A DNA stretch of 64,000 nt from a bacterium (GCA_040390065.1 JAZJZE010000006.1:45344-109343); one strand, 5' to 3'; shown: positions 1 to 17,556, counted from the stretch's first letter. The notes: generated by a model from the sequence alone, not told the origin. A program made the numbers and translations.

Positions 1-3000
1 GGGATCGACCCTGCTTGACTCGACGGGCGGCGTGATTGGTGTCTTCAACAACCAGGCGACGGTCGACGGCGCGCAGCCAGTCCTGGTCTCCGCCTTCGTC
101 GGCACGGTTGCCACCGGCGCGTTGCCGATCCTCGGCGCGCAGCCCAAGACGATCACGGCCACGTTCAGCGAGCCGGTCACCGAGACGGGTGGCAACGCTC
201 TCTTGGTCTCCGACTTCGCTTACACGAACGGCAACGCAGGTGCGGCCAACACGAACTGCCCCAGCGGCGCCGCGAGCCTTGCATCGCTCGTCTCCGGCGG
301 CACGGCGCCCACGGGAACGCTCAGCCAGACGCACACGGTCGTGCTCACGACGGACGGGCCCATCACGACCTTCGACGTGGGGCCGAACCCCGTCACGGGC
401 GTCTTCCTCGCCGGCGGCGGCACATGCCTGACAGTGTTCGACAGCGTCCGCGCCATCTCTGGCCAAGTGGTCGAGAAGGCGGCTCCGCACGCGACCGTCT
501 ACACGCCGGCCTCGGCCCTGCGCCTCACGGACGCGGAAGCTCCGAGCATCGCGAGCGCTGGTTTCATCGACGCCAACGGCGACGGCATCATCGACGCGGT
601 CCAGGTCAAGTTCAACGAAATGGTCAACGACGCTCCGCTGACGGCCGCCGACTGGTCGGTCAAGATCGGAACGCAAGCGCTGACCATCAAGGCCGTGACG
701 ACGGGCCAAGACGGCACCGAAACCGTCGACGGGCCGGGCGTCTGCCAGAACACGTATTCGCTCGCGACGGGCACGGGCGCCGTGAAGACGGTCTTCGCGC
801 TGTACCCGGACGAGGTCACGCCCGCAACCGGATTCGGCAAGGGCCTCTTCGACGACACCATCTTCCTCTGCCTCAACCCCGACGCGGCGACCGCCAACGG
901 CGGCACCAAGACGCTGGGCACGGGAGCCACGGGCTCGCTGCTGTACTCCGCCGCTGCCCCCGCAAGCCGCATCACGGACGTCCAGATGGCGACGAACAAG
1001 TTGCAGGACCTCGCCGCGGCGGTCACCATCGCAGACCTGGCTCGCCCCGTCATCCTGAACAACTGCCGCGTCGGCTCGGTCCAAGCCGGGGCCACCTGCC
1101 CCGCAGATGTGTCCGACGTCAGCGTCGAGACGGTTGACCTCAACAGCAACGGCAAGATTGACGCGCTGAAGGTCACGTTCTCGGAGAAGGTCAAGGACAG
1201 CACGTTCACGGTCGGCCAATGGAACCTCGCCGCACGCGCGCTCACGGGCATGCAGAGCGGCTCCATCGTCCCGACGCCGGCCGGCGAAGTCGACGACGCA
1301 ACCATCTACCTCACCTTCGCCGAGGCCTCGTCGCTCGACAGCGGCACGGGCCGCTACGGCTCGGCCACCATCCCCGACGTCGCGTACTTCGGTTCCGGCT
1401 CGATGAAGGACCTCAACAACAACCTGCTTCGCGGGGTGAGTCCCGGCGCGTGCAACGCACCGACCGTCGGCTGCTCCGACGAACGCGACGGCGCTGCCCC
1501 GACCATCGTATCCATCACGGCTGCGCCCGGCACGAACCTGGTCACCATCCAGTTCAGCGAGAACGTCGGCACGGGTGCGACGGGCACGGGCGCCATCGGC
1601 ACGGCCGACCTGGCGTACGTCAACACTGCCTCGGGCGGTGCCTCCAGCATCAACAGCATCAGCCACGCCGTCGGCAGCTCGACCCTGACGCTCACGCTGA
1701 ATGCCAACCTGAACTCGGCCGATGTGGCAAGCGGCGGAGACAAGATCGTCTTCACACCGGGCAACATCAAGGAGTTCAACTGCGGCGCCCACACGCCCCC
1801 GTACGCTTACCCCATCGTCGGCCCTGCGGCGCCCAACTCGTGCTACCGCGAAATCGCGATCACGCAGTCCAGCGTCGAACTCGCAGGTGTCAAGAGCCAC
1901 GCGCCGCCGACCGCCCCGGTCCTCACGAAGGACCCAACCGGTGACACGGCAACGGGCGCCAAGTTCACCTGGACGGTCCCGACGACATCCGGTGGCGCGA
2001 CCCTGGCATCCTACGAGTTCTTCGTGTGCCAGGCCCCGACGCTCCCCGCGTCGCACGCGGGCTGTGTTGCTCCGACCGGCGGCCAACCCGCCGCCTCGGC
2101 CACGTCGCTCACGGTGACCGGCCTTACGACGGGCAGCACGTACAGCTTCGGCATCCGTGCCATCGACTCGGACGGCCTGGCTGGCGCCGACTCCAACGGC
2201 ATCAACGGTTATGTCCCGGCCGCGCCGGACACCGATCCGCCCTGCGCCATCACCGACCTCTCGGTCGGCACGACGACCAGCAACTCGGTCACCCTGACAT
2301 TCCAGTCGCCGTTCGAGGACTGCGCCGCCCACGCGGGCAAGGTCAAGAGCTACAAGGTTGCCGTCTCGACGGGCACCGCGATCGGTTCGCAGGCGCAGTT
2401 CGATGCAGCCGTCGCGACGACGGGCCTGTCGTTCAGCCCCGCCACGCCGCAAGCGAACCCGACGCTTCAGGGGCTGACGGTCAGCAACCTCCAGCCCGGC
2501 CAGCAGTACCTCATCAGCGTCGAGGCCGTCGACGACGCCACCCCGACGGCCAACGTCGGTCCCCTCGGCGCCGCCGTCCCCGCAACGCCGTCGGCTCCTG
2601 GTGGGACGCCCGCCAAGATCGTCGACCTCGCCGTCACGGCCGGGTCGGCCTTCGGCAGCGTCGACCTTTCATGGTCAGCGCCGCCCAAGGACAGCCTCCT
2701 CGGAACGGGCACCGTGACGGGCTACGATGTCCGCATCACGACCTCGCCCGGTGGCCTCGGTGTCCCGGTGAGCAGCAGCGACCTGAGCTTCGGCTTCGGA
2801 ACGCCGGGAGCACCGGGCCAACCGCAGAGCGCCACCATCTCGGGTCTGTCCGCCGACACGACGTACTACATCACCGTCGCCGGCAAGAACCTCGGCACGA
2901 CCGGAACGCCGTCGACCCCCGCGTCGATCACGATCGGTTCCGACCCCAACGCGCTCACCGTCGCGGCACTGACCGCGTTCGAGACCAGCTTCGCGAACAC

Positions 3001-3718
3001 CCTCAAGGTCACGAACTCGGGCGGCACGAACACGCTGACCTGGGACACGCCGCCGGGCGACGCGACGCACGCGGCCGAGGGCATCCAGATCTGGAAGTCC
3101 ACGAACGGCGGCCCGTACACGCTGGTCAAGACCATCTCGTCGCTCAGCCCCGAGTACGGCCTGAAGTCGATGACGGACCCCGGCTCGTCCTCGGACAAGT
3201 ACCGCGGGACGGTCTACTACGGCAACACGGCGGCCAGCGGGTTTGCCGCCAACGGCGACCCCAACAGCATCCCGGGTTTCTCGAGCCTCCACGAGGCCAG
3301 CGCATCGTCCAACTTCCTGGGTCTCGACCCCATGATCTGGTGGATCATCATCGCGGCCGTCGGCCTGCTGTTGCTGCTGCTCATCATCCTCCTCATCGTC
3401 CGCAGCCGCCGCAACAAGGGCGGCGACTTCGCCGAGGAAGACGACGACGGAGGCTTTGCCGCGGTCGACGAGGGTGCCGAGGCGGCGCCTGCCATGGAAG
3501 CGCCCGATGCCCCGCCGGCGGATGCAGCCGCGGATGCGGCCGCAGCTTCGGCCGCCGTAGCCGCCGCCGCAGAGACGCCGCCGCCCGCGCAACCACAGGC
3601 CTCGGCCGAAAAGCACTACCTCACGTGCCCCAAGTGCACGACCGAGTTCACGGCCATGGGTGTCAAGCCGCTTGCCATCCAATGCCCGAACTGCGGTGTC
3701 CGCGGCACGCTCCGTTAG
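1..3718 (+). CDS. Giant Cys-rich surface protein (Ig-like/FnIII repeats, C-terminal TM helix, cytoplasmic Zn ribbon); 5'-truncated by the window
   Basis: Frame is open from base 2. Repeats IDANGDGIIDAVQVKFNE, VDLNSNGKIDALKVTFSE and TFSEPV; FnIII-like W...Y...GL...Y motifs; TM WWIIIAAVGLLLLLLIILLIV followed by RSRR; tail CPKC-x15-CPNCG. Confidence 0.85.
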   Translation, partial: GSTLLDSTGGVIGVFNNQATVDGAQPVLVSAFVGTVATGALPILGAQPKTITATFSEPVTETGGNALLVSDFAYTNGNAGAANTNCPSGAASLASLVSGGTAPTGTLSQTHTVVLTTDGPITTFDVGPNPVTGVFLAGGGTCLTVFDSVRAISGQVVEKAAPHATVYTPASALRLTDAEAPSIASAGFIDANGDGIIDAVQVKFNEMVNDAPLTAADWSVKIGTQALTIKAVTTGQDGTETVDGPGVCQNTYSLATGTGAVKTVFALYPDEVTPATGFGKGLFDDTIFLCLNPDAATANGGTKTLGTGATGSLLYSAAAPASRITDVQMATNKLQDLAAAVTIADLARPVILNNCRVGSVQAGATCPADVSDVSVETVDLNSNGKIDALKVTFSEKVKDSTFTVGQWNLAARALTGMQSGSIVPTPAGEVDDATIYLTFAEASSLDSGTGRYGSATIPDVAYFGSGSMKDLNNNLLRGVSPGACNAPTVGCSDERDGAAPTIVSITAAPGTNLVTIQFSENVGTGATGTGAIGTADLAYVNTASGGASSINSISHAVGSSTLTLTLNANLNSADVASGGDKIVFTPGNIKEFNCGAHTPPYAYPIVGPAAPNSCYREIAITQSSVELAGVKSHAPPTAPVLTKDPTGDTATGAKFTWTVPTTSGGATLASYEFFVCQAPTLPASHAGCVAPTGGQPAASATSLTVTGLTTGSTYSFGIRAIDSDGLAGADSNGINGYVPAAPDTDPPCAITDLSVGTTTSNSVTLTFQSPFEDCAAHAGKVKSYKVAVSTGTAIGSQAQFDAAVATTGLSFSPATPQANPTLQGLTVSNLQPGQQYLISVEAVDDATPTANVGPLGAAVPATPSAPGGTPAKIVDLAVTAGSAFGSVDLSWSAPPKDSLLGTGTVTGYDVRITTSPGGLGVPVSSSDLSFGFGTPGAPGQPQSATISGLSADTTYYITVAGKNLGTTGTPSTPASITIGSDPNALTVAALTAFETSFANTLKVTNSGGTNTLTWDTPPGDATHAAEGIQIWKSTNGGPYTLVKTISSLSPEYGLKSMTDPGSSSDKYRGTVYYGNTAASGFAANGDPNSIPGFSSLHEASASSNFLGLDPMIWWIIIAAVGLLLLLLIILLIVRSRRNKGGDFAEEDDDGGFAAVDEGAEAAPAMEAPDAPPADAAADAAAASAAVAAAAETPPPAQPQASAEKHYLTCPKCTTEFTAMGVKPLAIQCPNCGVRGTLR

Positions 3719-3730
3719 GCCGGTCCAGCC

Positions 3731-3750
3731 TTTTCTCCCCTTTTCCCCCC
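3731..3750 (+). terminator. Pyrimidine/oligo-T tract, probable archaeal terminator
   Basis: ttttctccccttttcccccc just after the stop codon; a similar tract follows the next gene at 9261-9295. Confidence 0.5.
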
Positions 3751-3775
3751 GTGCCGTCACCGCCAACCTACGGCG

Positions 3776-3933
3776 TCCGCGGATTTGCCTGAAATACCGT
3801 GCAGGACCGGTTTGGCCCACGCGCATCTTGCGAGGCCGCGGACTGGGAGCACATTTTGCCGATTTTGGCGTACCGTTTTGGTCAATCGGCGCACTCCAGA
3901 TGGATGACGAACTGGAAGGCATCTGCGCAATGG
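3776..3933 (+). repeat. Dispersed non-coding repeat, copy A
   Basis: 3895-3927 is identical over 33 nt to 17706-17738; 3837-3864 matches the reverse complement of 44751-44778 at 25/28. Confidence 0.8.
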
Positions 3934-3941
3934 AGCCCGCG

Positions 3942-3982
3942 GTTCGGTCGGGTCCGAATCTGTTGCTTGTTGTTTTAAATAC
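3942..3982 (+). promoter_or_regulatory. Archaeal promoter (TATA box TTTTAAATA) of giant surface gene 2
   Basis: gttcgg..ccgaatctgtt..ttttaaatac, homologous to 9469-9509 upstream of gene 3. Confidence 0.65.
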
Positions 3983-4057
3983 GTCCAGGGATGGGACGGA
4001 CCAGCAACGCTGATTGCGTGCCGCGAGGGCCGCGTCGGTGTGCCTTGAGGCAACAAC

Positions 4058-7000
4058 ATGGTGGCTGGTTCCCCGAAGCCAAAGTACCGCGCCCCGGCGC
4101 GCATCCTGATGGTCGCCGCCGTGCTGCTCCTTGGCAGCCTGATGCCCGCCATCGGCCCCGCCGCAGCGCAGTCCGGCAGCACGACGCTCATGACCGGCCC
4201 GTTCTTCGACGACGCCGGATCGCAGACGTTCCCGCACTGTCCGACGACGCCGACGAACCCCGCCCTCAAGGCGCAGAACGACGACGGCATCTGGCAGGTC
4301 CGCCAAGTCACTGTCATCTCCTCCACGGACGTCAACCAAGTCACCTTCGATTACGTCGTCGGCACCGGCACGGGTGTGGGCGCCAACCAGCGCATCGAAT
4401 GGGGCACGTCCACCGCAGGCAGCAAGGCCGCCGGCTGGCCGAGCATCTCCGTCTCCAACGGCGCAGCGTCCGGCAACCTGAACCGCCTCACGTTTTCGGG
4501 CGGCACACTGTCGCACCTCAGCCTCGCCGGCCAAGTCTTCACGATCGCGTTCCGCGTCATCGGAAGCCCCGCGGCCGACGTCTACACGCAGCTGGGCGCC
4601 GGCAAGGTCAGCGTCACCGCAGGCAGCAAGGACGTCGTCGGCACCGGCACGGCCTTCACGCAGTTCTTCGCCGTCGGCAACACCTTCAAGGTGAGCGGCG
4701 ACGCGCACCAGTACAAGGTCGCAAGCATCCAGGACGCGACCCACCTCAAGCTCACGGACAAGCTGGTCGGCTCCTCCATCACGCCGACGACGGCGCTCAA
4801 CTACACCAAGATTGACCCGGCCACGACGACCACGCCCGCGACGTTCCCCGTCAAGGTGGACAACGACGCCAGCATCTGCATCGTCATCGACATGACGCCG
4901 CCGCACGTCATCTCGGCCTACACGCGCGACACGAACTTCAACGGTCTCTTGGACGAGATGGTCCTCACCTTCGACGAGGAGATGGACCCGACGACGCTGA
5001 ACCCCGCCTCGTTCGCCGTCAACGCGAGCTCCAGCGGCGAACCCATCCCCTACTCCGTGCTCCCGTCCAACGGCAAGAGCCTGGTCAAAGGACTGGGCAG
5101 CGACGACGGCCATTTCTCCGACCCGGCATGCACCACGGCCTCACCGCCCGCCAATGCCTGCGTCAACCTCGAGAAGACCCTGAAGTTGTCGCTCGCGGAG
5201 GGTTACAAGTACGACACGGGCGTCTTGCCTGAGGTCACGTACCCGAAGGCCGGCGAGTCGGCGACGTTCTCGGACCTTGCGCACAACCCTCTCGCCAACA
5301 TCACGAACTCCGACCTCACCGAAGTCGACGGCGCCAAGCCCGTCCTGGTGAGCGTCTTCGACTTCGAGGGCGCCACCTCGATGATCGCCACGTTCAGCGA
5401 ACCCGTCACGGGCTCGGGCCCCAAGTCGGGCGCCCAGGCCGGCGACGTCGACAACTGCATCGGTGGTCTCGGCTGCGTCCGGACGACCGACTTCTTCTAC
5501 TACGATCGCTGCGCCGGAAAACTCAGCAGCGACAGCCAGTGCAACCCGGCCACGGGCCTCAGCCACATGTCGGGCACGAATTGCATCACCGCGCAATCCG
5601 GTCTTTCCCCTGAGATCGGCGTCTCCATGCACACGCCTGGCCCAACGAACGGCAACACGGTGACGCTGCCCGTCATCGCTGTCGCCTCGGACCCTGGCTG
5701 CGATGTGGCCGGCAAGGGGCAAGGCGTCAAGGGCTACGTCGGCAAGGGCGACGCTCAGCAGGCGCTCGGTGATGTCATCGCGCTCAACACAATGGCCTCC
5801 GAACCCGTGAGTTCCATCACTTGCCCCGGCATCGACTTCCTGCCCTGCGGCGCCCTCGTACGCGACGCCACCGGCCTGCGCGGCGTCCCCACGGCTCCGT
5901 GCAGCATCGCCAACGTGTGCAACGCCGGCGCCGGCCCCGGCGGCGGCGCCAACGGCATCAAGGGCGCAACCTCGTCGCTGCCCCTCGTTGTCGACGCGGT
6001 CGTCAACATCGACACCTTCCAAGTCACGCTCAACTTCAACGGTCCCGTGAGCGACGCCTCCGGCGACGACAAGCCCCTTACGCTGCAGGACCTCACCGTC
6101 ATCTCGGCCGACGGTCCCAGCAACTCGCAGGGGCCGGGCGGCATCACGCAGATCCTGCACCGGGCCGGCGCCTCGCGCGCCATCCTGACGCTGGACAAGA
6201 AGGTCCGGCCGACGGACGTCGACGACACGCCGACCAAGATCGGCATCAAGTGCAATGCCATCAAGGGCACGCGGCAGGCGGCGTTCGTGCCGTGCGGCGA
6301 TCCTGACGGCACGGGCGGATCGGGAGTGGCCCTCATCGACAACGTTCTGCCCGCCATCCTCAAGGCCGAGACGGTCGACATGGACCGCGACGGCCAGGTG
6401 GACGGTTTGTTCCTGGAGTTCAACGAGCCGGTCGACGACACGACGTTCTGTCAGCTTGGCAACGCGCCGCCCCCGGCCGAATGCTACCCCGGTTCCGGCG
6501 GCGTCGGCCTGCAGGTGGGCAAGTACCACCACCCCGCGGACGCGACGGGTCCGGAGACGAAGTACGTCTTCGACACGGACGCCAGCCCCGGAGGCGTTGG
6601 CGCGCCCATCAGCGTCGACCAAGGCAACGGCCAGCCCAACGACCGCTTTGGCATCATCAAGTTCGTGAACCCGTTCAAGCAGCCCATCGGCCTCGGCACT
6701 GCCGACCCGGCCGACACGGCCATCACGACGACCGCCGCAGGCCTGTTCTCCGACCTGTCCCATCCGGGGCCGCCGACGCAGCCGCCGTACGCCCAGGCCA
6801 AGCAGATGGCACAGATCTGCCCCACCGGATGCCTCGGCTCGGTCAAGCTCCTGGACGGCGCGCCGCCGGTGCTGCTCTCGGCCTTGACGGTCGACACGCG
6901 GCTCACGGTTCCTGGAGCCCCCACGGTCAACGACCTGGAAGGGGACGGCTACCTCGACGGATACCGCATGACGTTCAGCGAACCCGTGCTCGACAAGTCG

Positions 7001-9253
7001 TTCTGCCACAACAACCTGCAGACCGGCCCCGTCTACCTGTGCAACTCGGTGGAGTGGGCTGTCGAGGGCCACAAGGTCATCGGCATGCGCACCCGCGACC
7101 CGAACGTCGTCGACCTCACCGGCCTCACGAACGTCGACAACGAGGTCACGCTGCTCTTTGCCCCGGGCGACCACCCGGATACCGGCGAGCGGCCCAAGCT
7201 CACGTACTTCGGCCCGTCGCAGCCCACGTACGGCTTCAAGGATCTGCAAGGCGTCCAGATGCTGCCCCTGCAGCCGATCGACGGCTTCGAGGAGGACGAT
7301 GCAGCACCGGTCATCACGTTGGTCGAGGGCTTCCTCGGCCGCAACAACGTGACCATCCGCTTCAGCGAGCCCGTCGACAACGGCCAGAAAGGCGCCCTCG
7401 GGCGCTCCAGCCTGCTGTACTTCAACATCGACCACTTGCCCGACGGCGTCTCCGGATTGTCCTCGCAGGACGCAGTCGTGCACTTCGCCGCCACGGACAA
7501 CCTGATTGCGCACCTGAACTGCCCCGTCAACGCGCCCAAGACGGTGCCGGACTGCGGCAACATCGGCTTGCAGGTGCACGACATCCAGAACGACACCATC
7601 TCGGCCGAGCTGAACTCCATCTGGGAAACGTCCCCCAGCGTCCCGTCGCCGCATGTCGTTTCCAAGAAGTCCGTGTCGGTGAAGAACCACCACCTCGGCA
7701 ACGCCATCGACATCTTCCGCCCCGCCAACGTCACGCAGTTCCAGGTCGTGAAGCAGCTGACGTCCGCCAACTCGGTGACCCTGAGCTGGAAGGCGCCCGG
7801 CAACGACGGCAACGGCTTCGGCTCGGTGCGCGGCTACCGCATCAAGGTGTCGACGCAGAAGATCGCCCCCGGCGACTTCAACGTCTCGTCGGCGCCGGGC
7901 AGCTACGGCCTTGGCGACTCGAACCCGAACGCCACCCTCAACGCCGACGGCAGCGCCAATATCGTGCGGCTGCGCGGCGACCAGGTCTACGCCATCCTCA
8001 GCCCCGACGCGGGCGGACTGGCCGGTCCTGGCGAGTACCAGCAGGCGACCATCATCGGCCTGCAGGCCCAGACCACGTACCACTTCGCCGTCGAGGCGTT
8101 CGATGCCGCGACGCTGCCGCCGTGCTACACGACGGATGCAGGTCACACGACGTTTGCCGCCCCAGTGGCCGCTTGCCCCTCGACCAACACGAAGCGCGTC
8201 GACTTCCGCCACTTCTCCGGCATGCGACCGGATGACGTCTCGATTGCCGCGACGCAGTACGACGTCTCCACGGCGACCGGCATCGACCTGACGCCGCCGG
8301 TCCCGACACCGGTCATCGCAAGCACGACGCACCCGGCGAACCGCCCCGACCCGAAGATGACCGCCATCTTCAGCTGGACGAACGCGACGGACGGCGAGTC
8401 GACGGTGAACTACCACTACGCGCTCAACACGGACCCGCAGTACAAGGTCCTCGTCACGGACTTGGTCTACACGGGCGCTGCCAACCTGCCGAGCGTCTCG
8501 ATCCCCATCCCGAGCCGCGGCACGTGGTACTTCCACGTCGCGGCCTTCAGCGGCGGCGGCTCGACGGCGACGGCGCACTACACCATCATCGTGGACCGCC
8601 CGACCATCGACCCCGCGGACATCCGCGAACGCAACGACCTCGTGCTCACGAACGCGACGCGCGACGGCGCGACCAACTCGGTGACGTGGCACCTGCCGGA
8701 CCAGGCGCTCCTGCCCCCCGGCGGCCAACTCGAGGGCGTCGACATCTACGCCATCGAAGGATGCGGCTCCTCGACGGGCTGCACGGTCGTCAACGCCCAC
8801 TCGATCACCGGCACGTACGACCAACTGCAGTCGGGCACGTGGACGGACGACCGCGCGACGGCCGGAAGCGTCACGGGCTACCGCGTCGAGATGGTCTTCG
8901 CCAACGCGCAGACGCAGACGCCGACCGGCGGGAGCCACAGCGTCCAGGGTTTCGCCGCCATCCAGGAACAACCCGGCCACGACAACTCCGCGCTCTGGTG
9001 GCTCCTGGCCGCTGTCCTACTGGTTCTCGTGGCGGCCGGCATCGCCTTCCTGGTGATCCGCAGCAAGCGCGCCAACGCTGCAGCCTTCGAGGAGATCCCC
9101 TCGGAATCGACCGCGGCGGGCATGGACCCCGTGACCGGCCTGCCGGCACATGACGTGCGCTGCCCCTCGTGCCAGACGGCGTTCCAGGCGGTCGGCAACC
9201 TGCCGCTGCAGATCACCTGCCCCAACTGCGGTGTTTCGGGCCTGCTGCAGTAG
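4058..9253 (+). CDS. Giant Cys-rich surface protein (signal peptide, Ig-like/FnIII repeats, TM helix, cytoplasmic Zn ribbon)
   Basis: 1731-aa ORF; signal peptide ending PAAA-Q; DxDxDG..TFxE repeats; TM LWWLLAAVLLVLVAAGIAFLVI followed by RSKR; tail CPSC-x15-CPNCG. Confidence 0.88.
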   Translation: MVAGSPKPKYRAPARILMVAAVLLLGSLMPAIGPAAAQSGSTTLMTGPFFDDAGSQTFPHCPTTPTNPALKAQNDDGIWQVRQVTVISSTDVNQVTFDYVVGTGTGVGANQRIEWGTSTAGSKAAGWPSISVSNGAASGNLNRLTFSGGTLSHLSLAGQVFTIAFRVIGSPAADVYTQLGAGKVSVTAGSKDVVGTGTAFTQFFAVGNTFKVSGDAHQYKVASIQDATHLKLTDKLVGSSITPTTALNYTKIDPATTTTPATFPVKVDNDASICIVIDMTPPHVISAYTRDTNFNGLLDEMVLTFDEEMDPTTLNPASFAVNASSSGEPIPYSVLPSNGKSLVKGLGSDDGHFSDPACTTASPPANACVNLEKTLKLSLAEGYKYDTGVLPEVTYPKAGESATFSDLAHNPLANITNSDLTEVDGAKPVLVSVFDFEGATSMIATFSEPVTGSGPKSGAQAGDVDNCIGGLGCVRTTDFFYYDRCAGKLSSDSQCNPATGLSHMSGTNCITAQSGLSPEIGVSMHTPGPTNGNTVTLPVIAVASDPGCDVAGKGQGVKGYVGKGDAQQALGDVIALNTMASEPVSSITCPGIDFLPCGALVRDATGLRGVPTAPCSIANVCNAGAGPGGGANGIKGATSSLPLVVDAVVNIDTFQVTLNFNGPVSDASGDDKPLTLQDLTVISADGPSNSQGPGGITQILHRAGASRAILTLDKKVRPTDVDDTPTKIGIKCNAIKGTRQAAFVPCGDPDGTGGSGVALIDNVLPAILKAETVDMDRDGQVDGLFLEFNEPVDDTTFCQLGNAPPPAECYPGSGGVGLQVGKYHHPADATGPETKYVFDTDASPGGVGAPISVDQGNGQPNDRFGIIKFVNPFKQPIGLGTADPADTAITTTAAGLFSDLSHPGPPTQPPYAQAKQMAQICPTGCLGSVKLLDGAPPVLLSALTVDTRLTVPGAPTVNDLEGDGYLDGYRMTFSEPVLDKSFCHNNLQTGPVYLCNSVEWAVEGHKVIGMRTRDPNVVDLTGLTNVDNEVTLLFAPGDHPDTGERPKLTYFGPSQPTYGFKDLQGVQMLPLQPIDGFEEDDAAPVITLVEGFLGRNNVTIRFSEPVDNGQKGALGRSSLLYFNIDHLPDGVSGLSSQDAVVHFAATDNLIAHLNCPVNAPKTVPDCGNIGLQVHDIQNDTISAELNSIWETSPSVPSPHVVSKKSVSVKNHHLGNAIDIFRPANVTQFQVVKQLTSANSVTLSWKAPGNDGNGFGSVRGYRIKVSTQKIAPGDFNVSSAPGSYGLGDSNPNATLNADGSANIVRLRGDQVYAILSPDAGGLAGPGEYQQATIIGLQAQTTYHFAVEAFDAATLPPCYTTDAGHTTFAAPVAACPSTNTKRVDFRHFSGMRPDDVSIAATQYDVSTATGIDLTPPVPTPVIASTTHPANRPDPKMTAIFSWTNATDGESTVNYHYALNTDPQYKVLVTDLVYTGAANLPSVSIPIPSRGTWYFHVAAFSGGGSTATAHYTIIVDRPTIDPADIRERNDLVLTNATRDGATNSVTWHLPDQALLPPGGQLEGVDIYAIEGCGSSTGCTVVNAHSITGTYDQLQSGTWTDDRATAGSVTGYRVEMVFANAQTQTPTGGSHSVQGFAAIQEQPGHDNSALWWLLAAVLLVLVAAGIAFLVIRSKRANAAAFEEIPSESTAAGMDPVTGLPAHDVRCPSCQTAFQAVGNLPLQITCPNCGVSGLLQ

Positions 9254-9410
9254 GCCACAACCCCCATTTTCCCTCCTTTTCCCTCGTCCTTTCCTGTCCG
9301 TCCGGGCGCCGACGCCTTGCCCGCCATCCCTGGGAGAGTGGGTCAGCTCCGGGGGGCTATGGCGGCCGGGCCGGCGCCAGACCGGGGCCAACCAGGGGGT
9401 CGCCCAGGAG

Positions 9411-9465
9411 GGGCAATCTGCGGGGAATCCAGCTGGATTGCGAACGGGAAGGCATCTGCGAAATG
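9411..9465 (+). repeat. Dispersed non-coding repeat, copy B (partial)
   Basis: 9428-9460 matches the 33-nt core at 29/33. Confidence 0.75.
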
Positions 9466-9468
9466 CCC

Positions 9469-9509
9469 GTTCGGTTGACTCCGAATCTGTTCCTTGGCGT
9501 TTTTAATAC
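9469..9509 (+). promoter_or_regulatory. Archaeal promoter (TATA box TTTTAATA) of giant surface gene 3
   Basis: Homologous to 3942-3982; lies about 70 nt before ATG 9579. Confidence 0.65.
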
Positions 9510-9578
9510 CCCCCAGATTGGAGAACCATGGGACCGGTGCGCCTTTTGGTGACGCCGGCCTCAAGACGAGGTCAAATC

Positions 9579-12500
9579 ATGGCATCGAAGTCGAGCCGAA
9601 TGGGTCAGCTGCTGGGTCCCCTGGTGCTGGCGTTCCTGATGGTCTTCACGGTCCTTGCGACGGTGACACCGCAAGCACAGGCTGCCGTGACGAGCCGACC
9701 GGAAGGCAAGGTCCTGATCACCACGGAGCCCGACTTCAACCTCCCCAACTACGACCAGATGGGGCCCACCGGGTCGATCTTCTACCCGTGGCAGGCGCAG
9801 CCGCCCGGACCGACGACGCAGCCGCCGCAGGTCGTCAACAACCCCTTGGCGACGTATCCGAAGAACCCGGCGACCGTGTACGTCAACACGAAGCACCAGG
9901 ACCCGGACGGCAAGTGTCCGGGCTGCTTCCAGCGCACGGTGCGCGTCGCCTTCAACGACATGGCCGTGACCCGCATCGACTTCGTCGCCCCGACCCGCGA
10001 CGCCTTCTCGACGCCGGTCTGCAGCAACACCCCGGTGGATGCCTGGGCCGCCGCGATGGACCCGTGCAAGGACCACGGCATGCTGCGCTGGCGCCCCGAG
10101 TATTCCTACGCCACCCGGCCTGGCTGGGCCGTGAGCGTCAACGCGGAGAACGCGAAGAAGAGCCAATGCGACGACCCGATCAAGTGCGCCATGGGCGACG
10201 ACACGCCGCCGGCGCGCATCATGAGCTTCACGTCCGACGTGCCGAACCCGGTGCCCAGCCTGCTCTTGGGAACGACGCCGGGCGACGCTCGCCTCGCCAA
10301 CGCCCTCGATATCGTGCTTGCCTTCTCCATCGATGGCACGCCTTCTGGCGACGACGGCATGCAGACGTTCCCGCAGACGCCCGCCGACGAATTCCACGTC
10401 CAGATCAACGTGACACCGTCGGGAAACCCCAACATCCCGTTCGAGACGACCTGCCCTGCATGGAACTCGGCCACCGGCGTCAACGGCAACCCGCAAAGCC
10501 CCTTCACCTGCGTCTACACCAACCCGCCGTTCAAGGGACCTGCGCCCGTCAACTTCCCGGCTGAGTTCATCGCCGACCCGCGCTTCTCGTCCGTCGACTG
10601 CGGTGTCCCGGGCGGCTTGTGCACCGGCACTCCTGGCCTCGTGATCCGCGTCGACAACACGCCGCCGGAAGTCCACGAGACGTCCAACGGCGACGCCCGC
10701 GTGGCTGCCGGAAACGGCGGTCCCATCCCGTGTGTCTGCAGTTTCTTCTCGCAGGACGTCGACCACAACGGCCACATCGACCGCTTCATCGTCTCGTTCA
10801 CCGAGCCGCTGAACCCGAACACCTTCGACTTCCGCCAGTTCAGCATCCAGACGAAGGGCCGCGACCGCCCCTACACGATCACGAACGCCTTCTTCGAGCA
10901 GCAGAGGGCCGGCCCCGGCCCCGAGGAAGGCCTGTGCTTGCAAGGGCTCACGACCCCGCCCGCGCAGACGCCGCCTCTCACGCCGATTCGCATCACGTAC
11001 CCTGGCTCGACGTGCCGCGTCGACTTCCTCGTGGCGGAGATGCCCTTCATGGACTCCGGCGACACGCCGAACCTGAAGTATCCCTGTGACCTCTGCCCCG
11101 CGACGGCCACGGACCGCGCCGGCAACCCGCTCAAGAAGATGACTGGCACGACCATCCTCGCCGTCGACCGCGCCCCACCGATCCTCTACTCGACGTACGC
11201 ACTCGACGCCGCCCACAACGGTGGCGTCCCCTACGCGCAGACGGAACTGCAGGTCTTCTTCTCCGAGAACGTCATGGGCTCTGGCTGCAACGACCCGCAG
11301 GCCGGCCCGCCCGCAACCTGCGGCACGCGCCCCGTCCAGTTCAACGACTTGTGCTACATGGACAATGTCTCGCCCGGCGGTGCCGGCGACGTGATCGGCA
11401 AGCCGACGCCAGACCTGCCCTCGGGTGGCCGCGTCATCACGAGCATCACGACGACCATCAATCCGTCCGACACGCTGAACTTCGCGACGGGCCCCGTCAT
11501 CACGGCCGGCCAGATCTACTACATCGGCACCGTAACATCGGGAACGACGACCGGCGGCGGCGCCACCAGGCTCATCGACACGAGCAAGAACTTCGCAGCC
11601 ATCGGCGTCACGGTCGGCATGATCATCGACTTCAGCGGCGGATGCTCGGCGCCCATCGGCGCATGCACCGGCTGCTTCTCCCTCGATACGCCGTATGACA
11701 CGACATCGGCCGTCTGCCAGCCCGCACCCAAGTGCCGCTACTTCGACCTCGTCGACCACACGCCGGCACCGGGTGCCAGCTCCGTCGGCACGGCTGGCGA
11801 CGGCTGGAAGATGCGCGTGCTGACGATGCTCAACCCGACGGACACCAACAACCGACTCATGTACGGTTCGGCCGACGTGCATCCGTTCAACGGCGACATG
11901 ATCACGGTCAACGTCGCGCCGCACGGACTGACGCGCGGCTGCTTCGCCGTCATGCTGGAGCAAGGCATCCTCGGCACCGACCCGTGCAACGCCGACGTCC
12001 GCGACCTGCACGACAACGGCGCCTGGTACCCGACCGGCCTGCCGCGCGTGGCCTACCCGCGCCCGCCCGCCTTGGCGCATGTGACGTTCCCGATGGTCAA
12101 GTCGGCGACCGTCGATTCAAGCAACCCCAGTTGCCCGCAGTCCACGCCCGGCAAGGGCGTCGGTCCCGGTGACCTCACGGACACGGTTGCCTGCCACTAC
12201 TGGCTGAAGCTGCAGTTCAATGGCCCGGTGCGCGGCCCCAACGGCCCCGCCTCGTGCGACACGACGACCGGCAGCGGCAAGACGGCGAAGCCGTTCTTCG
12301 CCTGCAACCTCGACATCAAGGCCGCCACCGGCAAGGAGCTCGGCCAAGGCCCGCAGGGCTTCTTCGGCCCGGCGCCGCCGTCCACGACCGGCTCAAGCAG
12401 CACGGCCACGCAGGCGCCCTACTACCTGATGGGCGACAACGACCAGGCAGTCCTGCAGATGGACTACGCCGCCCGACCCATCGACGTCTCCCTGAGCGGA

Positions 12501-15500
12501 GCGCGCGTCAAGCTCGTCTGCAACACCATCTTCGCAACCCCGGGCTGGGTCAGCAAGTACAGCCTCGACCCGAGCACGACCGGCGTCAACCCGCTGGTCG
12601 GCGCCATCCCCTGCGACGACCCCGACCAGTACTACGGTCCGCAGGAAGACTTTGGCGGCGTCGTGCAGCGCCCCGACATCGACATCGTCGACCTGACGCC
12701 GCCTCGCATCCTCGAGGCCCGCACCGTCGATGCCGACCACAACGGCTACCTCGACGGCGTGCAGCTGACCTTCAGCGAGCCCATCGACGACGGCAGCTAC
12801 TGCGGCAACGACCCGTCCGCGCAGGCCGCGCCCAACTTCTGCCCTGACACCGAATCCGGCGCCGGCACGGGCTACATCACGTTCTCGCGTTGGACTTCGC
12901 AGGAGATGATCCGCGCCATGACGGACGTGCACGAGGAAGAGTGCTTCGCCTCGTCCGGTACACTGGACGGCACCGACACGGGCACGCCCTACACGGACGG
13001 CTTCAAGTGGGACACGGGCACGCTGTCCAACGACAACGTCGGCACCATCCTGCACGTGCGCACACTGACGCAGCAGGACGGCTCTTACATCACGCGTCCG
13101 CAGGACTGCAACGAATACTTCCGTGGCGTCCGCATGGATGGCCTGCCAAACCCGCCTGCCCCCAACGGCGACGGCGCGACGCGGCCCCTGCAGCGCTGGC
13201 CGACGGATTCGCTCCTGCACATCACTTCCCCGGTGCCCGGCCTCTTCTCGGATCTGGCGACCCATCCGTTCCACGACAACTCGGACATCTTCAGCCCGCC
13301 CAACTCGCCGCCGGTTGCCAACCCCAACCAGTTGCCGCGCATCTGCCAGTTCGAGTCGCGCGCCATGACGGGCCAGGCGGGCACCTACAACCAGGTGCAG
13401 AGCCACCCGAGTGCGGCGTGCGACACGACGCAGATCACGGTGGATTCCGTGCGTGTGACGGACGGCGCGCCGCCCGTGCTCTGGAAGGCGCAGACGTACG
13501 ACACGCCTGTCCTCGATGTCAACGGCATCCCCGACACCAAGAACTTCTGGAACAACCTGTTCGGCGACGGCACCATCGACGGCTACCGCCTGACCTTCAG
13601 CGAACGGGTCAACGACGGAAGCTTTGTCGCCGCCGACTGGCACGTGGCGGGCCACGACACGCTGGAGTTCACCAACCCGACGGGCTGCAGCAAGCCGGGC
13701 AAGACGACGTATGTCAACCACGAGGTCACGATCGACACCGTCATCCCGGGCAAGGCCCTCATGCGGACGCGGGACACGACGCTGAACCCGTTCGACCCGC
13801 TGCAGAACGACCAGATCTCGCAGGGCCAGAGCGACGACCAGTTCATCCTGCTGTTCACGCCGGCGAAGACCATCTTCACCAAGCCGGACGGCTGCAAGGA
13901 GTTGCACGCCGCGTACGACACGGAGACGAAGCCTGAACTGACGGCGTCCGGCCCCAACGGCCACTTGCACATGGCGGACCGCGCCGGCCTCCTGAAGCCG
14001 AACCCGATCTGCCCCAGCAACACCGCCAACTGCTGCCCAGGCGGGCCGTCCATCAACAACTGCATGGTCGACTTCGACACCTTCGCCGTGCAGGAAGAGG
14101 ACCGCGCCGGTCCACAGATCGTGCGCATCGAGGGCTTCGCCGGAACGAACCACATCGACGTGCGCTTCAGCGAACCCGTCGACGACGGCAGCCACAGTGG
14201 CCTGGTGCGCGACGACTTCCAGTACTTCGACAAGAACGCCAAGGACGTGGCGGGCTTCTCCAGCACGGAGCCCGTGGAGTCCACGGCCGGTGGCCGCAAC
14301 TCCACCATCCACCTCGGCCAGCTTCTGACGGTCTCCGACCAGACGTCGGACAAGATCGCCGCCAGGACCTGTCGCATCTACGAGGTCGCTCCGTCGGTCA
14401 GCCCGTCGCAGCGCCAATGCGTGCCGAGTTACCCGCGCTCGCTCGTGCCCGAGAACGACACCGCCGCGCCCGGCGCCCTGTCCGACTTCCGCATCGTGGC
14501 CGAGCTCACGAACGCCAACAGCCTGACAGCGAGCTGGACCGCGCCTGCCGACGACGGCACGGCCGGCAAGCCAGTGTCGGGCTACACGTGCCTCGTCGGT
14601 ACGCGCACGATCCTCGGCAACGAGACGAACGACAACCGCATCAGCTTCTCGTACGACCCGCCGGTGTCGTCGCTTGCCGGACCGGGCCTCACGCAGACCG
14701 TCCGCATCGCAGGCCTCGACTCGGAAGCCAAGTACTACATCGCCTGCTACGCCAAGGACGATCTCGGCAACCTGTCGCCGCTGTCCGAGGTGGCGTCCGG
14801 GACGACGACGCGCGATGTCACGCCGCCGACCGGCACCATCACCATCAAGTCGCCGTCGCACCCCGCCGGCGTCCCGACGGCTGGCAACACCATCTCGTTC
14901 ACCTGGAACGCCATCACGAAGGCGCAGGAGCCCGAGTCGACCGTGGTGTACCACTACGCGCTCAACACGAACCCGAACTACGTGGTTCTCGCCACCGACG
15001 GTGCAACCCAGGACACGAAGGTGACGCAACTCGCTCCGGGCGACGGCACGTACTACTTCCACGTCGCGGCCATGAGTGGCGGCGGCTCGACGCTCACGGC
15101 CCACTACCAGGTCGTGGTCGGCTTGCCCCCGCTGACGGTCGCCTCGATCGAGTCGGCCAACGACCTCGTCAAGACCGAGCCGTTCCGCCAGGAGCAGGAG
15201 TTGAACGGCCAGACGGTCGTCCTCAACAACGTCACCTGGACGCTGCCGCCGGACACGACCCCTCCCGGCTTGGACATCAGCGGCGTCGAGATCTGGCGCG
15301 AGGACCACGGCATCTTCACGAAACTGAACCTCGCCGACACGGACCCGAAGATCTGCTCGCACCCGCTGTCGGGCTCGTACGACGACCTGAAGAGCGGTCA
15401 CTGCTGGGACACGAGCCTAGGCGCCACCGCCGACTCGAAGTACAAGGTCACGATGGTCTTCGCGACCCCCCCGCACACGCAGGGCGAACCCGTGAAGGGC

Positions 15501-15818
15501 TACGCCGGCCTCGTGGACCAGACACCGGGAGTCGTCCCGCCGTGGATCTGGATTCTGGCCGGCATCGCGCTGGCGCTCATCCTGTCGGGTCTCGTGATCT
15601 TCGTGATCCTGAAGCGCCGCTCCAAGCTCGAAGCCACCGGCGGCACCGCCTACAGCTGGGAGTCGGCCAACCCCGAACTCCTCGGCATCGACGAGGCCAC
15701 CGGCCTGCCCGTGCACGAAGTGCGCTGCCCGTCCTGCAACAACCCGTTCCAGGCCGTCGGCGCTCTCCCCTTGCCGGTCACGTGCCCGACTTGCGGCACG
15801 ACCGGGGAACTCGAATAG
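9579..15818 (+). CDS. Giant Cys-rich surface protein, colinear paralog of 4058-9253
   Basis: ATG 9579 follows gagg; signal peptide ending AQA-A; same module order as gene 2 and shared YHYALNT and YFHVAA.SGGGST.TAHY motifs; TM helix; tail CPSC-x15-CPTCG. Confidence 0.88.
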   Translation: MASKSSRMGQLLGPLVLAFLMVFTVLATVTPQAQAAVTSRPEGKVLITTEPDFNLPNYDQMGPTGSIFYPWQAQPPGPTTQPPQVVNNPLATYPKNPATVYVNTKHQDPDGKCPGCFQRTVRVAFNDMAVTRIDFVAPTRDAFSTPVCSNTPVDAWAAAMDPCKDHGMLRWRPEYSYATRPGWAVSVNAENAKKSQCDDPIKCAMGDDTPPARIMSFTSDVPNPVPSLLLGTTPGDARLANALDIVLAFSIDGTPSGDDGMQTFPQTPADEFHVQINVTPSGNPNIPFETTCPAWNSATGVNGNPQSPFTCVYTNPPFKGPAPVNFPAEFIADPRFSSVDCGVPGGLCTGTPGLVIRVDNTPPEVHETSNGDARVAAGNGGPIPCVCSFFSQDVDHNGHIDRFIVSFTEPLNPNTFDFRQFSIQTKGRDRPYTITNAFFEQQRAGPGPEEGLCLQGLTTPPAQTPPLTPIRITYPGSTCRVDFLVAEMPFMDSGDTPNLKYPCDLCPATATDRAGNPLKKMTGTTILAVDRAPPILYSTYALDAAHNGGVPYAQTELQVFFSENVMGSGCNDPQAGPPATCGTRPVQFNDLCYMDNVSPGGAGDVIGKPTPDLPSGGRVITSITTTINPSDTLNFATGPVITAGQIYYIGTVTSGTTTGGGATRLIDTSKNFAAIGVTVGMIIDFSGGCSAPIGACTGCFSLDTPYDTTSAVCQPAPKCRYFDLVDHTPAPGASSVGTAGDGWKMRVLTMLNPTDTNNRLMYGSADVHPFNGDMITVNVAPHGLTRGCFAVMLEQGILGTDPCNADVRDLHDNGAWYPTGLPRVAYPRPPALAHVTFPMVKSATVDSSNPSCPQSTPGKGVGPGDLTDTVACHYWLKLQFNGPVRGPNGPASCDTTTGSGKTAKPFFACNLDIKAATGKELGQGPQGFFGPAPPSTTGSSSTATQAPYYLMGDNDQAVLQMDYAARPIDVSLSGARVKLVCNTIFATPGWVSKYSLDPSTTGVNPLVGAIPCDDPDQYYGPQEDFGGVVQRPDIDIVDLTPPRILEARTVDADHNGYLDGVQLTFSEPIDDGSYCGNDPSAQAAPNFCPDTESGAGTGYITFSRWTSQEMIRAMTDVHEEECFASSGTLDGTDTGTPYTDGFKWDTGTLSNDNVGTILHVRTLTQQDGSYITRPQDCNEYFRGVRMDGLPNPPAPNGDGATRPLQRWPTDSLLHITSPVPGLFSDLATHPFHDNSDIFSPPNSPPVANPNQLPRICQFESRAMTGQAGTYNQVQSHPSAACDTTQITVDSVRVTDGAPPVLWKAQTYDTPVLDVNGIPDTKNFWNNLFGDGTIDGYRLTFSERVNDGSFVAADWHVAGHDTLEFTNPTGCSKPGKTTYVNHEVTIDTVIPGKALMRTRDTTLNPFDPLQNDQISQGQSDDQFILLFTPAKTIFTKPDGCKELHAAYDTETKPELTASGPNGHLHMADRAGLLKPNPICPSNTANCCPGGPSINNCMVDFDTFAVQEEDRAGPQIVRIEGFAGTNHIDVRFSEPVDDGSHSGLVRDDFQYFDKNAKDVAGFSSTEPVESTAGGRNSTIHLGQLLTVSDQTSDKIAARTCRIYEVAPSVSPSQRQCVPSYPRSLVPENDTAAPGALSDFRIVAELTNANSLTASWTAPADDGTAGKPVSGYTCLVGTRTILGNETNDNRISFSYDPPVSSLAGPGLTQTVRIAGLDSEAKYYIACYAKDDLGNLSPLSEVASGTTTRDVTPPTGTITIKSPSHPAGVPTAGNTISFTWNAITKAQEPESTVVYHYALNTNPNYVVLATDGATQDTKVTQLAPGDGTYYFHVAAMSGGGSTLTAHYQVVVGLPPLTVASIESANDLVKTEPFRQEQELNGQTVVLNNVTWTLPPDTTPPGLDISGVEIWREDHGIFTKLNLADTDPKICSHPLSGSYDDLKSGHCWDTSLGATADSKYKVTMVFATPPHTQGEPVKGYAGLVDQTPGVVPPWIWILAGIALALILSGLVIFVILKRRSKLEATGGTAYSWESANPELLGIDEATGLPVHEVRCPSCNNPFQAVGALPLPVTCPTCGTTGELE

Positions 15819-15883: not shown

Positions 15884-16179
15884 GATGCCAAGCCAGGGCA
15901 CTAGGGGGCGCCGTTCGTGTCATGCTCCACTTGGGCCATAGGGTGGTGTCAGCCCCTAAGACCCCCCAGCGGACGGCGCAGCGTCGCCCGGCGCCGCTGC
16001 GCCGGCCATCGCACCGGGCCCTCCCGGGCCACCTCCCCCACCATTCGGTAGGCACGCCAGCGCGTCGCAGCGCCTCGCGGGCCGCGATGCCCCCGTCGCA
16101 CGAAGCGGTCCTTTCCACCTAAATAGCGAAAAACCCCTGTGCCGACCATGGGGCCGCCATGCGTTGGGGAGGATTCCGC

Positions 16180-17556
16180 ATGAGGCACGGCCGCGGCGCG
16201 GCATCGACCCTGGCCCGTGGCTGGCTGCGCGACGGTCGCCGCTGGTCCCTCGGCTCCTCCCTCGTCCTGGCTGGCACTCTCATCGCCATGGTCGGGACGG
16301 CCGGCATCCTGGATGGAACGCGCGACGTCACCCTGGACCGAGTGTCCGATTTCTACACGGGCGACCTTCGCATCACACCCGTCAGCCAAGGTGCCATGCC
16401 GGCTGGGTGGTTCGCCCTCAATGCATCGGCTGCCGGCCCCGGCGCGGCCAAGGAATTGCAGGCGAGCGGTCTCACCGTCTCGACGCGCGTCGAAGCGCAG
16501 TTCGTCATGAGTCGGCAAGGCCTCATCGCGAGCGCCATCGACCAGTTCCTGCAAAATGGCCAGATTCCCGTGGAAACCCCCGGCAGCGGGGGCACGGATG
16601 CAAACAAGGCGCTGGTCGTGGGAGGTCTCGTCGGCATCGAGGCCGGCGACCACGCCTCGACCCGCATCGCGGAGCACCTCATCGACGGGCGCCTGCCGCG
16701 GCCGACGACGGACGGCACCGTCGAGGTCGCCATGTCGGTGCGCCGCCTCGAGGGCCTCCTGACGCCCGACGAACGCGCCCGCCTGCCCAGCCCACCGCCT
16801 CTGTCGGCCCTGTGCCACCGGGACGCCGTGACCAAGTCCACGCCATGCGACATCACGGCCGGCAAGACGCGCACGGGATCCTACTACGAGCCCTTCGTCG
16901 ACCGGCCCGTCGACATCGTCGGCCTCTTCGAAACGGGCATCGACGTCCTCGACATGACGACGCTCGTCGCGGCCGCGCCGCAAGTGCGCGAGCTTCTGGG
17001 ACGGGGTGCTGATGAACCGATCGCCAACGCCTTGCTGGTCCAATCTGGCAGCCCAGCGGCGGCGCAAGCCATCGCCGACAAGCACCACTGGGCCACCGAG
17101 GGCACCGAGCACTTTGCCGGCAGTTACGTGGGCCAGCTGCTTGCCGTCCTCTCCGCCGTCGTCTTCCTCGTCGGCGCGCTCCTGTTCTTCCTGCCGACCT
17201 TCCTCGTCAGCCACGGCATCTCGCGGCAGTTGGCCATGCAGCAACGTGAACTTGCCGTGTGCACGGCCATCGGCGTGCCGACGTCCACGCTGCGCAAGGC
17301 GCTCGCCTTCCAGGTCCTGCTGATTGCCGCCGTGGGCGCCGGCGTGGCGCTTGTCGTCTCCCTTGCGGCCGCGGCCATCCTCCCTGGCGTCCTCGCCCAA
17401 GTCAAGGGGACGCCGTTGCCAGCAGGCTTCACCATCACGTGGACGACTGCAGTGCTGGCCGTCCTTGTCACGGTCGTCGCGATGGCCGTCGGTTGGGGAC
17501 TTGGACTGCGGGCGCGCAGCCGCCTCCCGCTCACGGCGCAGTTGCGCTCCGCGTAG
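16180..17556 (+). CDS. FtsX/LolE/MacB-like ABC transporter permease
   Basis: One N-terminal TM, large extracellular domain and three C-terminal TMs; QRELAVCTAIG matches the RxREiGxxxAiG motif; ggagga before the ATG. Confidence 0.8.
   Translation: MRHGRGAASTLARGWLRDGRRWSLGSSLVLAGTLIAMVGTAGILDGTRDVTLDRVSDFYTGDLRITPVSQGAMPAGWFALNASAAGPGAAKELQASGLTVSTRVEAQFVMSRQGLIASAIDQFLQNGQIPVETPGSGGTDANKALVVGGLVGIEAGDHASTRIAEHLIDGRLPRPTTDGTVEVAMSVRRLEGLLTPDERARLPSPPPLSALCHRDAVTKSTPCDITAGKTRTGSYYEPFVDRPVDIVGLFETGIDVLDMTTLVAAAPQVRELLGRGADEPIANALLVQSGSPAAAQAIADKHHWATEGTEHFAGSYVGQLLAVLSAVVFLVGALLFFLPTFLVSHGISRQLAMQQRELAVCTAIGVPTSTLRKALAFQVLLIAAVGAGVALVVSLAAAAILPGVLAQVKGTPLPAGFTITWTTAVLAVLVTVVAMAVGWGLGLRARSRLPLTAQLRSA

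Follow-up and report, generated by a model that had tools for sequence, protein, structure and literature searches.

MJ0042-type zinc ribbons are a known domain class, and they are also known to serve as cytoplasmic knobs tethered to a membrane. The 43-residue ribbon of ZitP from Caulobacter crescentus is reported to bind PopZ (PMC5182065). In GltJ (AgmX) of Myxococcus xanthus a ribbon with its 95-residue linker is described as part of a cytosolic switch in the gliding focal-adhesion machinery, and the ribbon structure is reported to be similar to that of ZitP (PMC11135422). Heliorhodopsins of Thermoplasmatales carry an N-terminal zinc_ribbon_4 that has been proposed to recruit partners (10.1101/2021.02.01.429150). 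Here we describe a ribbon of this class at the C-terminus of three giant putative surface proteins, A, B and C, which are encoded in tandem in a 64,000-nucleotide stretch of DNA (G000:C6:45344-109343; JAZJZE010000006.1:45344-109343 of assembly GCA_040390065.1), referred to in the following as the window. In the literature, supplements aside, we found no description of such a tail on archaeal surface proteins, and an ESCRT survey, in the portion available, mentions other ribbons only (PMC11188069). As far as our searches extend, two things are new in print: the C-terminal form of fixed length that an archaeal order carries on its giant type-I surface proteins, and its single and tandem relatives across Thermoplasmatota.

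Like the tails described here, the ZitP ribbon (PDB entry 2NB9, zinc_ribbon_5) is a C4 ribbon held at the membrane on the cytoplasmic side, and the bitopic protein to which it belongs has its other domain beyond the membrane. It differs in being N-terminal, bacterial and part of a small protein. GltJ, too, combines a cytosolic ribbon with a linker that is long and flexible, in a membrane protein belonging to a surface-to-cytoplasm machine. Its ribbon, however, is N-terminal and bacterial and is reported to act together with MglA/MglB and a neighbouring GYF domain; genes of the GYF or MglA/MglB type did not turn up in our analysis, in which no search was aimed at them. We know of no PopZ outside bacteria. 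The heliorhodopsin ribbon is from the same archaeal class as the window and forms a zinc_ribbon_4-type CxxC-x17-CxxC at the end of a membrane protein that faces the cell interior, but it is N-terminal, has a 17-residue spacer and belongs to a seven-helix photoreceptor rather than to a surface protein.

Positions 2-15818 of the window are occupied by three open reading frames (ORFs) in tandem on the + strand. Gene A is open at its 5' end and begins upstream of the window: the ORF list and translation place its 3' part at 2..3718, and its whole frame (G000:C6:41622-49061, + strand) counts 2479 codons from stop to stop, or about 2,450 amino acids from the first Met. Gene B (4058..9253) encodes 1731 and gene C (9528..15818) 2096 amino acids. 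All three proteins close with the same series of elements, namely a single transmembrane (TM) helix, a basic patch, a linker and a 34-residue C4 zinc ribbon followed directly by the stop codon. The preliminary description had read the pattern H-x-[LV]-x-CPxC-x3-F-x-A-x-G-x2-PL-x-[IV]-x-CPxCG-x2-G-x-L-x-stop, with an identical spacing of 15 residues, at the end of all three giants, and translations and alignment match it letter for letter. In each protein 15 residues separate the two CxxC knuckles and the chain ends seven residues past the last Cys; the three-tail alignment has 15 invariant columns out of 38 and no gaps.

The TM helices, placed by their coordinates, hydropathy and a positive-inside count, lie at 3332-3400 in A, 8990-9058 in B and 15540-15611 in C, all on the + strand like the elements that follow. 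The basic patch is RSRRNK in A (3401-3418), RSKR in B (9059-9070) and KRRSK in C (15612-15626). The translated linkers measure 65 amino acids in A (3419..3613), where the sequence is acidic and rich in Ala and Pro, 26 in B (9071..9148) and 29 in C (15627..15713). The 34-residue ribbons, located by translation and alignment, occupy 3614..3715 (stop codon 3716-3718), 9149..9250 (stop codon 9251-9253) and 15714..15815 (stop codon 15816-15818), respectively.

The same architecture recurs in related genomes. A profile built from the three tails finds a match in 39 of 41 of them (E ≤ 0.01), and its strong matches sit at the ends of frames 1,200-3,000 codons long. We fetched the regions of the 38 best non-self matches. 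Helix, basic patch, linker (34-159 amino acids), ribbon and stop follow one another in 35 of these, with seven residues past the last Cys in 33 and eight in two. Of the three exceptions, L030 is a frame that the end of a contig cuts off, L047 is a fragment of 49 codons and L050 is a small protein with two ribbons. The tail is not confined to giants: the 35 include two multi-pass membrane proteins some 300 amino acids in length (L046 and L049) and a frame of 229 codons (L043). Together with the three window tails, the 35 tails of the relatives form an alignment of 38 tails from 30 genomes, to which the expression '38 tails' refers below. No gap falls within the ribbon and CPxC-x15-CPxC is found throughout. 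Residues C13, P14, C16, F20, G24, P27, C32, C35 and G39 are invariant, and P33 and L41 are conserved in at least 90% of the sequences. The linker that the preliminary description had called acidic is so across the whole set: past its first eight residues, Asp and Glu make up 22.5% of the 38 tails' linkers, versus 2.3% for Lys and Arg.

Conservation is far higher in the tail than in the ectodomains to which it is attached, as had been claimed from the window. Proteins B and C share 22 of 34 tail residues versus about 31-33% identity in the ectodomain; over the C-terminal 967 alignment columns their identity is 33%. Between B and its orthologue P0006 the tail retains 32 of 34 residues (94%) versus 38% in the ectodomain, and the corresponding values are 29 of 34 versus 32% for P0011 and 19 of 34 versus 26% for P0013. 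Over all comparisons the tails are 56-94% and the ectodomains 26-57% identical, the tail being about twice as conserved each time. Nearby housekeeping enzymes provide a second reference: between the host genome and G007, tail B keeps 32 of 34 residues, acyl-CoA dehydrogenase is 79%, tryptophanyl-tRNA synthetase (TrpRS) 62% and the ectodomain 38% identical. Nearly every position of the tail appears, from these comparisons, to be under purifying selection.

Within the host genome the motif is specific. Among 32,919 six-frame ORFs of at least 40 amino acids in the 2.68-Mb genome, CPxC-x15-CPxCG occurs in three, and these are the tails of A, B and C. A hidden Markov model (HMM) of the three tails gives E-values of 1e-21 to 1e-23 for its own tails and 8.7e-7 for the next-best ORF, while the 38-tail HMM scores A, B and C at 56.7-68.6 bits and five other ORFs (E ≤ 0.01) at 25.7 bits or less. 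The three tails are thus clearly set apart from all remaining ORFs in the genome-wide count. The weaker matches are generic MJ0042-like ribbons at either end of membrane proteins, and it is among the strong matches that a bias in position and topology, the property by which the preliminary description proposed to tell the tail from generic zinc ribbons, is seen. These results support the view that the tail is no random zinc ribbon but a specific module with a set position.

A search of 1.84 billion proteins with the 38-tail profile returned 742 representatives at E ≤ 0.001, 210 of them at E ≤ 1e-10. We tallied the best 150 of the 742, in which 81 proteins have a single ribbon, 68 have 2-8 tandem ribbons and one has no ribbon by the pattern used. 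In the single-ribbon set 78 end exactly seven residues past the last Cys. A helix lies 29-125 amino acids upstream in 76 of the 81, including all 54 proteins of at least 1000 amino acids; the other five are 42-157 amino acids long and may be fragments. In the tandem set the last ribbon is no more than nine amino acids from the end in 63 of 68 proteins and a helix lies upstream in 58. The matches are therefore C-terminal and placed after a TM helix, the arrangement that the preliminary description had proposed to check, in nearly all of the best 150 of 742. According to Pfam, the ectodomains of 31 multi-ribbon proteins include PKD, Big_7, Big_5, beta-helix/NosD and BNR domains. One library protein, P0034, is an Hsp70/DnaK with three C-terminal ribbons of the tail type and no helix; the DnaK of the host genome itself (G000:C1:63688-65667) has a Lys-rich tail and no ribbon. 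Those cluster members that carry names are all 'hypothetical protein' from Thermoplasmata or Euryarchaeota metagenome-assembled genomes (MAGs). The presence of one tail on varied ectodomains and on a soluble Hsp70 fits a portable intracellular module that would be targeted to a common site.

The order to which the host belongs comprises three families, here f1 to f3. A search of 197 genomes of the class at E ≤ 1e-9 finds the tail in 30 of 31 genomes of f1, three of four of f2 and both genomes of f3, mainly on giant frames. Outside these families the matches in the class reach only about 40 bits, mostly to proteins of 156-195 amino acids with two helices and two tandem ribbons. At the level of the phylum, 82 of 301 sampled genomes match, with related forms on proteins of many sizes. 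No tail match was found in f12 (0/36), f15 (0/21) or f33 (0/42) in the phylum search, which does not equal absence.

Several other ribbon proteins came to light in these searches. Small proteins of 157-185 amino acids (L072-L076, in G008, G012, G016, G038 and G040), drawn from several families of the class, consist of a two-helix hairpin and two tandem ribbons. Three copies from the order itself end seven residues past the last Cys, and the other two end after five and six. Their closest equivalent in the host genome is at G000:C1:308026-308943. The host also has four multi-pass membrane paralogues, three of them adjacent (G000:C13:27606-30097 and G000:C9:499511-500872), with a shorter terminal ribbon, CPxC-x13-CxxCG, and a stop 2 to 13 residues later. 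A similar ribbon of the general type stands at the N-terminus of two further proteins (G000:C1:250468-252060 and G000:C17:9079-10386); as judged by eye, one resembles a type-II membrane protein with a cyclophilin-like ectodomain and the other is ABC ATPase-like.

In both libraries that were searched, the best-matching family for all 38 tails is the MJ0042 type (Zn_ribbon_4, PF13717; TIGR02098). When the tails are scanned alone, PF13717 matches 38 of 38 with a best E-value of 1.3e-7, tail B scoring 23.5 bits against a cut-off of 30.3; TIGR02098 also matches 38 of 38, tail B reaching 25.1 bits against a cut-off of 20.9 via partial stretches. Scans of full-length proteins are generally weak (13.5 bits for TIGR02098, against the same cut-off of 20.9), and of the tandem-ribbon relatives 21 of the 31 scanned exceed the PF13717 cut-off. 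With the MJ0042 type, Zn_ribbon_4 and Zn_ribbon_5 (PF13719), the tails share a CPxC...CPxC ribbon of about 35 residues and an aromatic residue after the first knuckle, and two CxxC knuckles about 15-19 residues apart, as the family is defined, are present in the three window tails and in all of the 38 tails. They differ from the family at large in the fixed 15-residue spacer, the G-x2-P-[LIV] loop and the G-x-L-x terminus. The family is usually described at protein N-termini, whereas here the ribbon constitutes the last 34 residues of the three window proteins and is equally terminal in 35 of the 38 regions from relatives. We therefore regard the tail as a distinct fixed-length sub-type of the MJ0042/Zn_ribbon_4 class, although by curated thresholds its membership is borderline. 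The AlphaFold2 model of tail B (mean pLDDT 80.4) has four strands (E8-12, E19-23, E28-31 and E38-41), in line with the two beta-hairpin knuckles that hold the four ligands of a zinc ribbon, and the tail is predicted to adopt this fold. In the ESM Atlas it scores 0.81 to an archaeal Zn_ribbon_4/DUF7560 cluster, which we take as a lead only.

The distribution of charges around the helix is strongly asymmetric. In the 15 residues on either side, summed over the 38 tails, Lys and Arg number 120 on the C-terminal versus 29 on the N-terminal side, and the C-terminal side has the higher count in 34 of 38 tails. The N-termini of A, B and C all look like signal peptides, judged by eye. Together, these features suggest that the proteins have a type-I topology and that the ribbon is cytoplasmic; in the cytoplasm a Cys4 zinc site would also be expected to remain stable.

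In the reading that we favour, and to which we would give an even chance, the tail is a cytoplasmic docking module for a conserved partner in the cytoplasm or at the inner leaflet. Each giant would be a type-I surface protein with a signal peptide, a large Ig-like/FN3 ectodomain outside the cell and one membrane helix. Inside the cell the basic patch and a floppy acidic linker would lead to a ribbon of the MJ0042/Zn_ribbon_4 kind as the extreme C-terminus. The ribbon would act as a small protein-binding knob on a leash that tethers or positions the membrane anchor of the surface protein on its partner, in a manner similar to the N-terminal ribbons of ZitP, with PopZ as its target, and of GltJ in the gliding focal adhesion. 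We favour docking because of the near-total conservation of the tail, the invariant residues other than the ligands, the long leash and the reuse of the ribbon on unrelated membrane proteins and a chaperone; the idea itself is drawn from the analogy with the ZitP and GltJ ribbons.

A simpler function would be that of a passive rivet or stop-transfer plug, in which a metal-bound knob holds the C-terminus inside the cell and strengthens the single-helix anchor against pull without any specific partner. The invariable position of the ribbon at the extreme C-terminus after a helix is in agreement with this, as is the lack of a conserved partner gene nearby, and the 2-8 tandem copies in relatives could be seen as a bigger plug. 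Nevertheless, four Cys residues and a small core would be enough for a plug, whereas 32 of 34 positions are retained in a comparison where housekeeping enzymes are 62-79% identical, and residues that are not ligands (the Phe, the G-x2-P loop and the terminal G-x-L, with L41 at 90% or more) are conserved over the 38 tails. In addition, a linker of 34-159 amino acids sets the knob far from the membrane, and the same ribbon is found on a soluble Hsp70, where a plug would be pointless. We consider a mere plug to be rather improbable.

In self-association, ribbons on adjacent molecules, or those of the paralogues A, B and C, would interact and gather the surface proteins into a patch or lattice from within; this appears to us just as improbable. 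It finds some encouragement in gene organization, as several relatives have tandem paralogous giant genes (three in G004 and G007; two in G017, G019, G016 and G160). The A-like tail is the commonest among relatives, and the B and C types are each specific to their paralogue and are maintained that way in G004, G007, G010 and G019. The tandem ribbon arrays of relatives suggest multivalency. On the other hand, many genomes of the family have one tailed gene only at E ≤ 1e-9, although the assemblies are fragmented. The ribbon is also borne by Hsp70 and by small membrane proteins of the multi-pass type, which are not lattice formers, and the sequences contain no hint of oligomerization, neither a coiled coil nor an odd Cys. 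A complex prediction with two copies of the tail and two Zn scored 0.01 against a mark of 0.42, which speaks neither for nor against self-association.

A sorting, processing or turnover signal would be read by a membrane protease, a sortase-like enzyme or a quality-control system that then cleaves, releases or degrades the protein. The exact end, seven residues past the last Cys with G-x-L-x-COOH, would suit such a function, and the genome has a gene of the exosortase/archaeosortase family (G000:C9:466922-467275, 41.5 bits). Known signals of this kind (PGF-CTERM, PEP-CTERM and LPXTG) place the motif to be recognized ahead of the helix and stop at the basic patch. The window proteins resemble PGF-CTERM/archaeosortase substrates in having a C-terminal helix and a basic patch on an archaeal surface protein, but they have no PGF-type motif before the helix and continue past helix and patch for 60-105 residues with a folded ribbon, which starts 26-65 residues beyond these elements in A, B and C. 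A whole-genome scan with TIGR04126 (PGF_CTERM) gave one match at E ≤ 0.01; it lies on contig C2, outside these genes, and its 22.4 bits fall short of the cut-off. With NF041738 (GG_III-CTERM), A scored 19.1 bits against a cut-off of 22 and B and C did not match. Accordingly, the separation of the tail from PGF-CTERM anchoring that was drawn in the preliminary description holds, and a sorting signal seems to us quite improbable, somewhat more so than a plug or self-association. The sub-threshold PGF-CTERM-like end (G000:C2:47500-47580) lies on an 1848-codon frame; together with the archaeosortase-family gene it indicates that a second, different anchoring system may exist in the genome. Finally, attachment of the surface protein to DNA, RNA or an anionic inner leaflet through the ribbon is highly improbable: zinc ribbons often bind nucleic acids and some tandem-ribbon relatives are very Lys-rich (P0014), but the window ribbons are not uniformly basic, the linker is strongly acidic at 22.5% Asp and Glu, and no known nucleic-acid-binding ribbon is prominent in the fold or sequence searches.

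Several observations weigh against a docking module. The neighbourhoods of the loci that we examined (the window, its relatives and the small two-ribbon proteins) yielded no candidate partner. The preliminary description had proposed that co-occurring genes be profiled; in the 16 loci of relatives no gene neighbour is conserved across the order. Directly after gene C the window contains a gene for an FtsX-like permease (16159-17556, + strand, 465 amino acids, PF02687 at 25.8 bits), which has no ABC ATPase gene for a neighbour. Eight of the 16 loci, all from f1, have a homologue of it no more than about 6 kb downstream of the tailed genes: six of six loci of a first set and two of ten of a second, with none from f2 or f3. 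We rejected this permease as a partner: the order-wide linkage fails, and an acyl-CoA dehydrogenase gene is also syntenic, so that the association is taken as plain synteny. The small two-ribbon proteins were likewise set aside as a functional clue, their neighbours being housekeeping genes (PPDK/SIS or PurS/PurL). The net charges of the ribbons of A, B and C, estimated by eye at about +4, 0 and -2, differ and so imply no simple electrostatic target.

Further points on the same side concern the module itself. Its cytoplasmic location is predicted from hydropathy and the positive-inside rule, and zinc binding is suggested by the four invariant Cys residues. The ectodomains may evolve fast under diversifying pressure, which could inflate their contrast with the tail. 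Foldseek gave no match in the PDB at E ≤ 0.001, the best being at E = 0.23, and in the wide fold search with VIA the best Z-score was 4.1, for the cytosolic domain of TMEM55B, and all rows, LysW at 3.3 included, were tied among generic ribbons. The fold matches are zinc ribbons throughout, if weak ones. The ZitP ribbon (2nb9) has a Z-score of 3.2 in VIA, with an r.m.s.d. of 1.8 Å over 34 residues, and appears in the PDB sequence search at E = 0.55 over query positions 11-38. Its likeness to the tail is no stronger than that of other generic ribbons and does not imply homology. The top matches of the PDB sequence search, C2H2 finger arrays, are partial and were discarded as not meaningful. Of the docking, sorting or signalling role proposed in the preliminary description, the intracellular placement thus stands, by the positive-inside rule, together with the position-bound nature of the tail, while neither a partner nor a neighbour conserved across the order came to light.

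The host is an uncultured Thermoplasmata archaeon. Its assembly (2.68 Mb in 50 contigs, about 67% G+C) contains ribbons typical of L40e, S27ae and the RpoM type, which turned up in the ORF scan and identify it as archaeal, and protein B has a single homologue with a name, a 'hypothetical protein' from a Thermoplasmata MAG. As regards the ectodomains, Pfam fn3 matches protein A at 82.5 bits; B contains Big_5 and fn3 and C contains fn3. All three repeat a module in which an Asp/Asn-rich loop, D-x-[DN]-x-[DN]-G-x-[IL]-D, is followed by [VL]-x-F-[SN]-E-x-[VLM]. An example is residues 278-341 of B, and the arrangement resembles a calcium-binding loop on a Big_5-like Ig domain. Upstream of gene A (G000:C6:21622-41621) there is a series of secreted-type proteins, among which are found Kelch and TSP_3 domains, RCC1 and 13 TSP_3 repeats, a lamin-tail domain and a transglutaminase core, together with an 839-amino-acid TSP_3 protein. 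This series makes the locus a surface-protein island.

Many Thermoplasmatota are without a rigid wall, and how very large surface proteins are organized, anchored and positioned in wall-less archaea is poorly understood. A docking module of the kind favoured here bears on this question. Because the tail is conserved above nearby housekeeping enzymes and is present on surface proteins throughout the order, it would mark a missing cytoplasmic partner or site, and the module, being short, soluble and easily made, could serve directly as a bait for that partner. The ribbon also offers a simple signature by which type-I surface proteins can be catalogued in Thermoplasmatota metagenomes. On a broader and, in our estimate, unlikely view, the ribbons of Thermoplasmatota, one or several in tandem on their acidic leashes, would be a phylum-wide, multivalent 'inside handle' that couples surface adhesins, enzymes and DnaK to one polymeric cytoplasmic scaffold or membrane domain. 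If this were true, the handle would be an archaeal counterpart of the integrin/focal-adhesion link, made via a hub protein.

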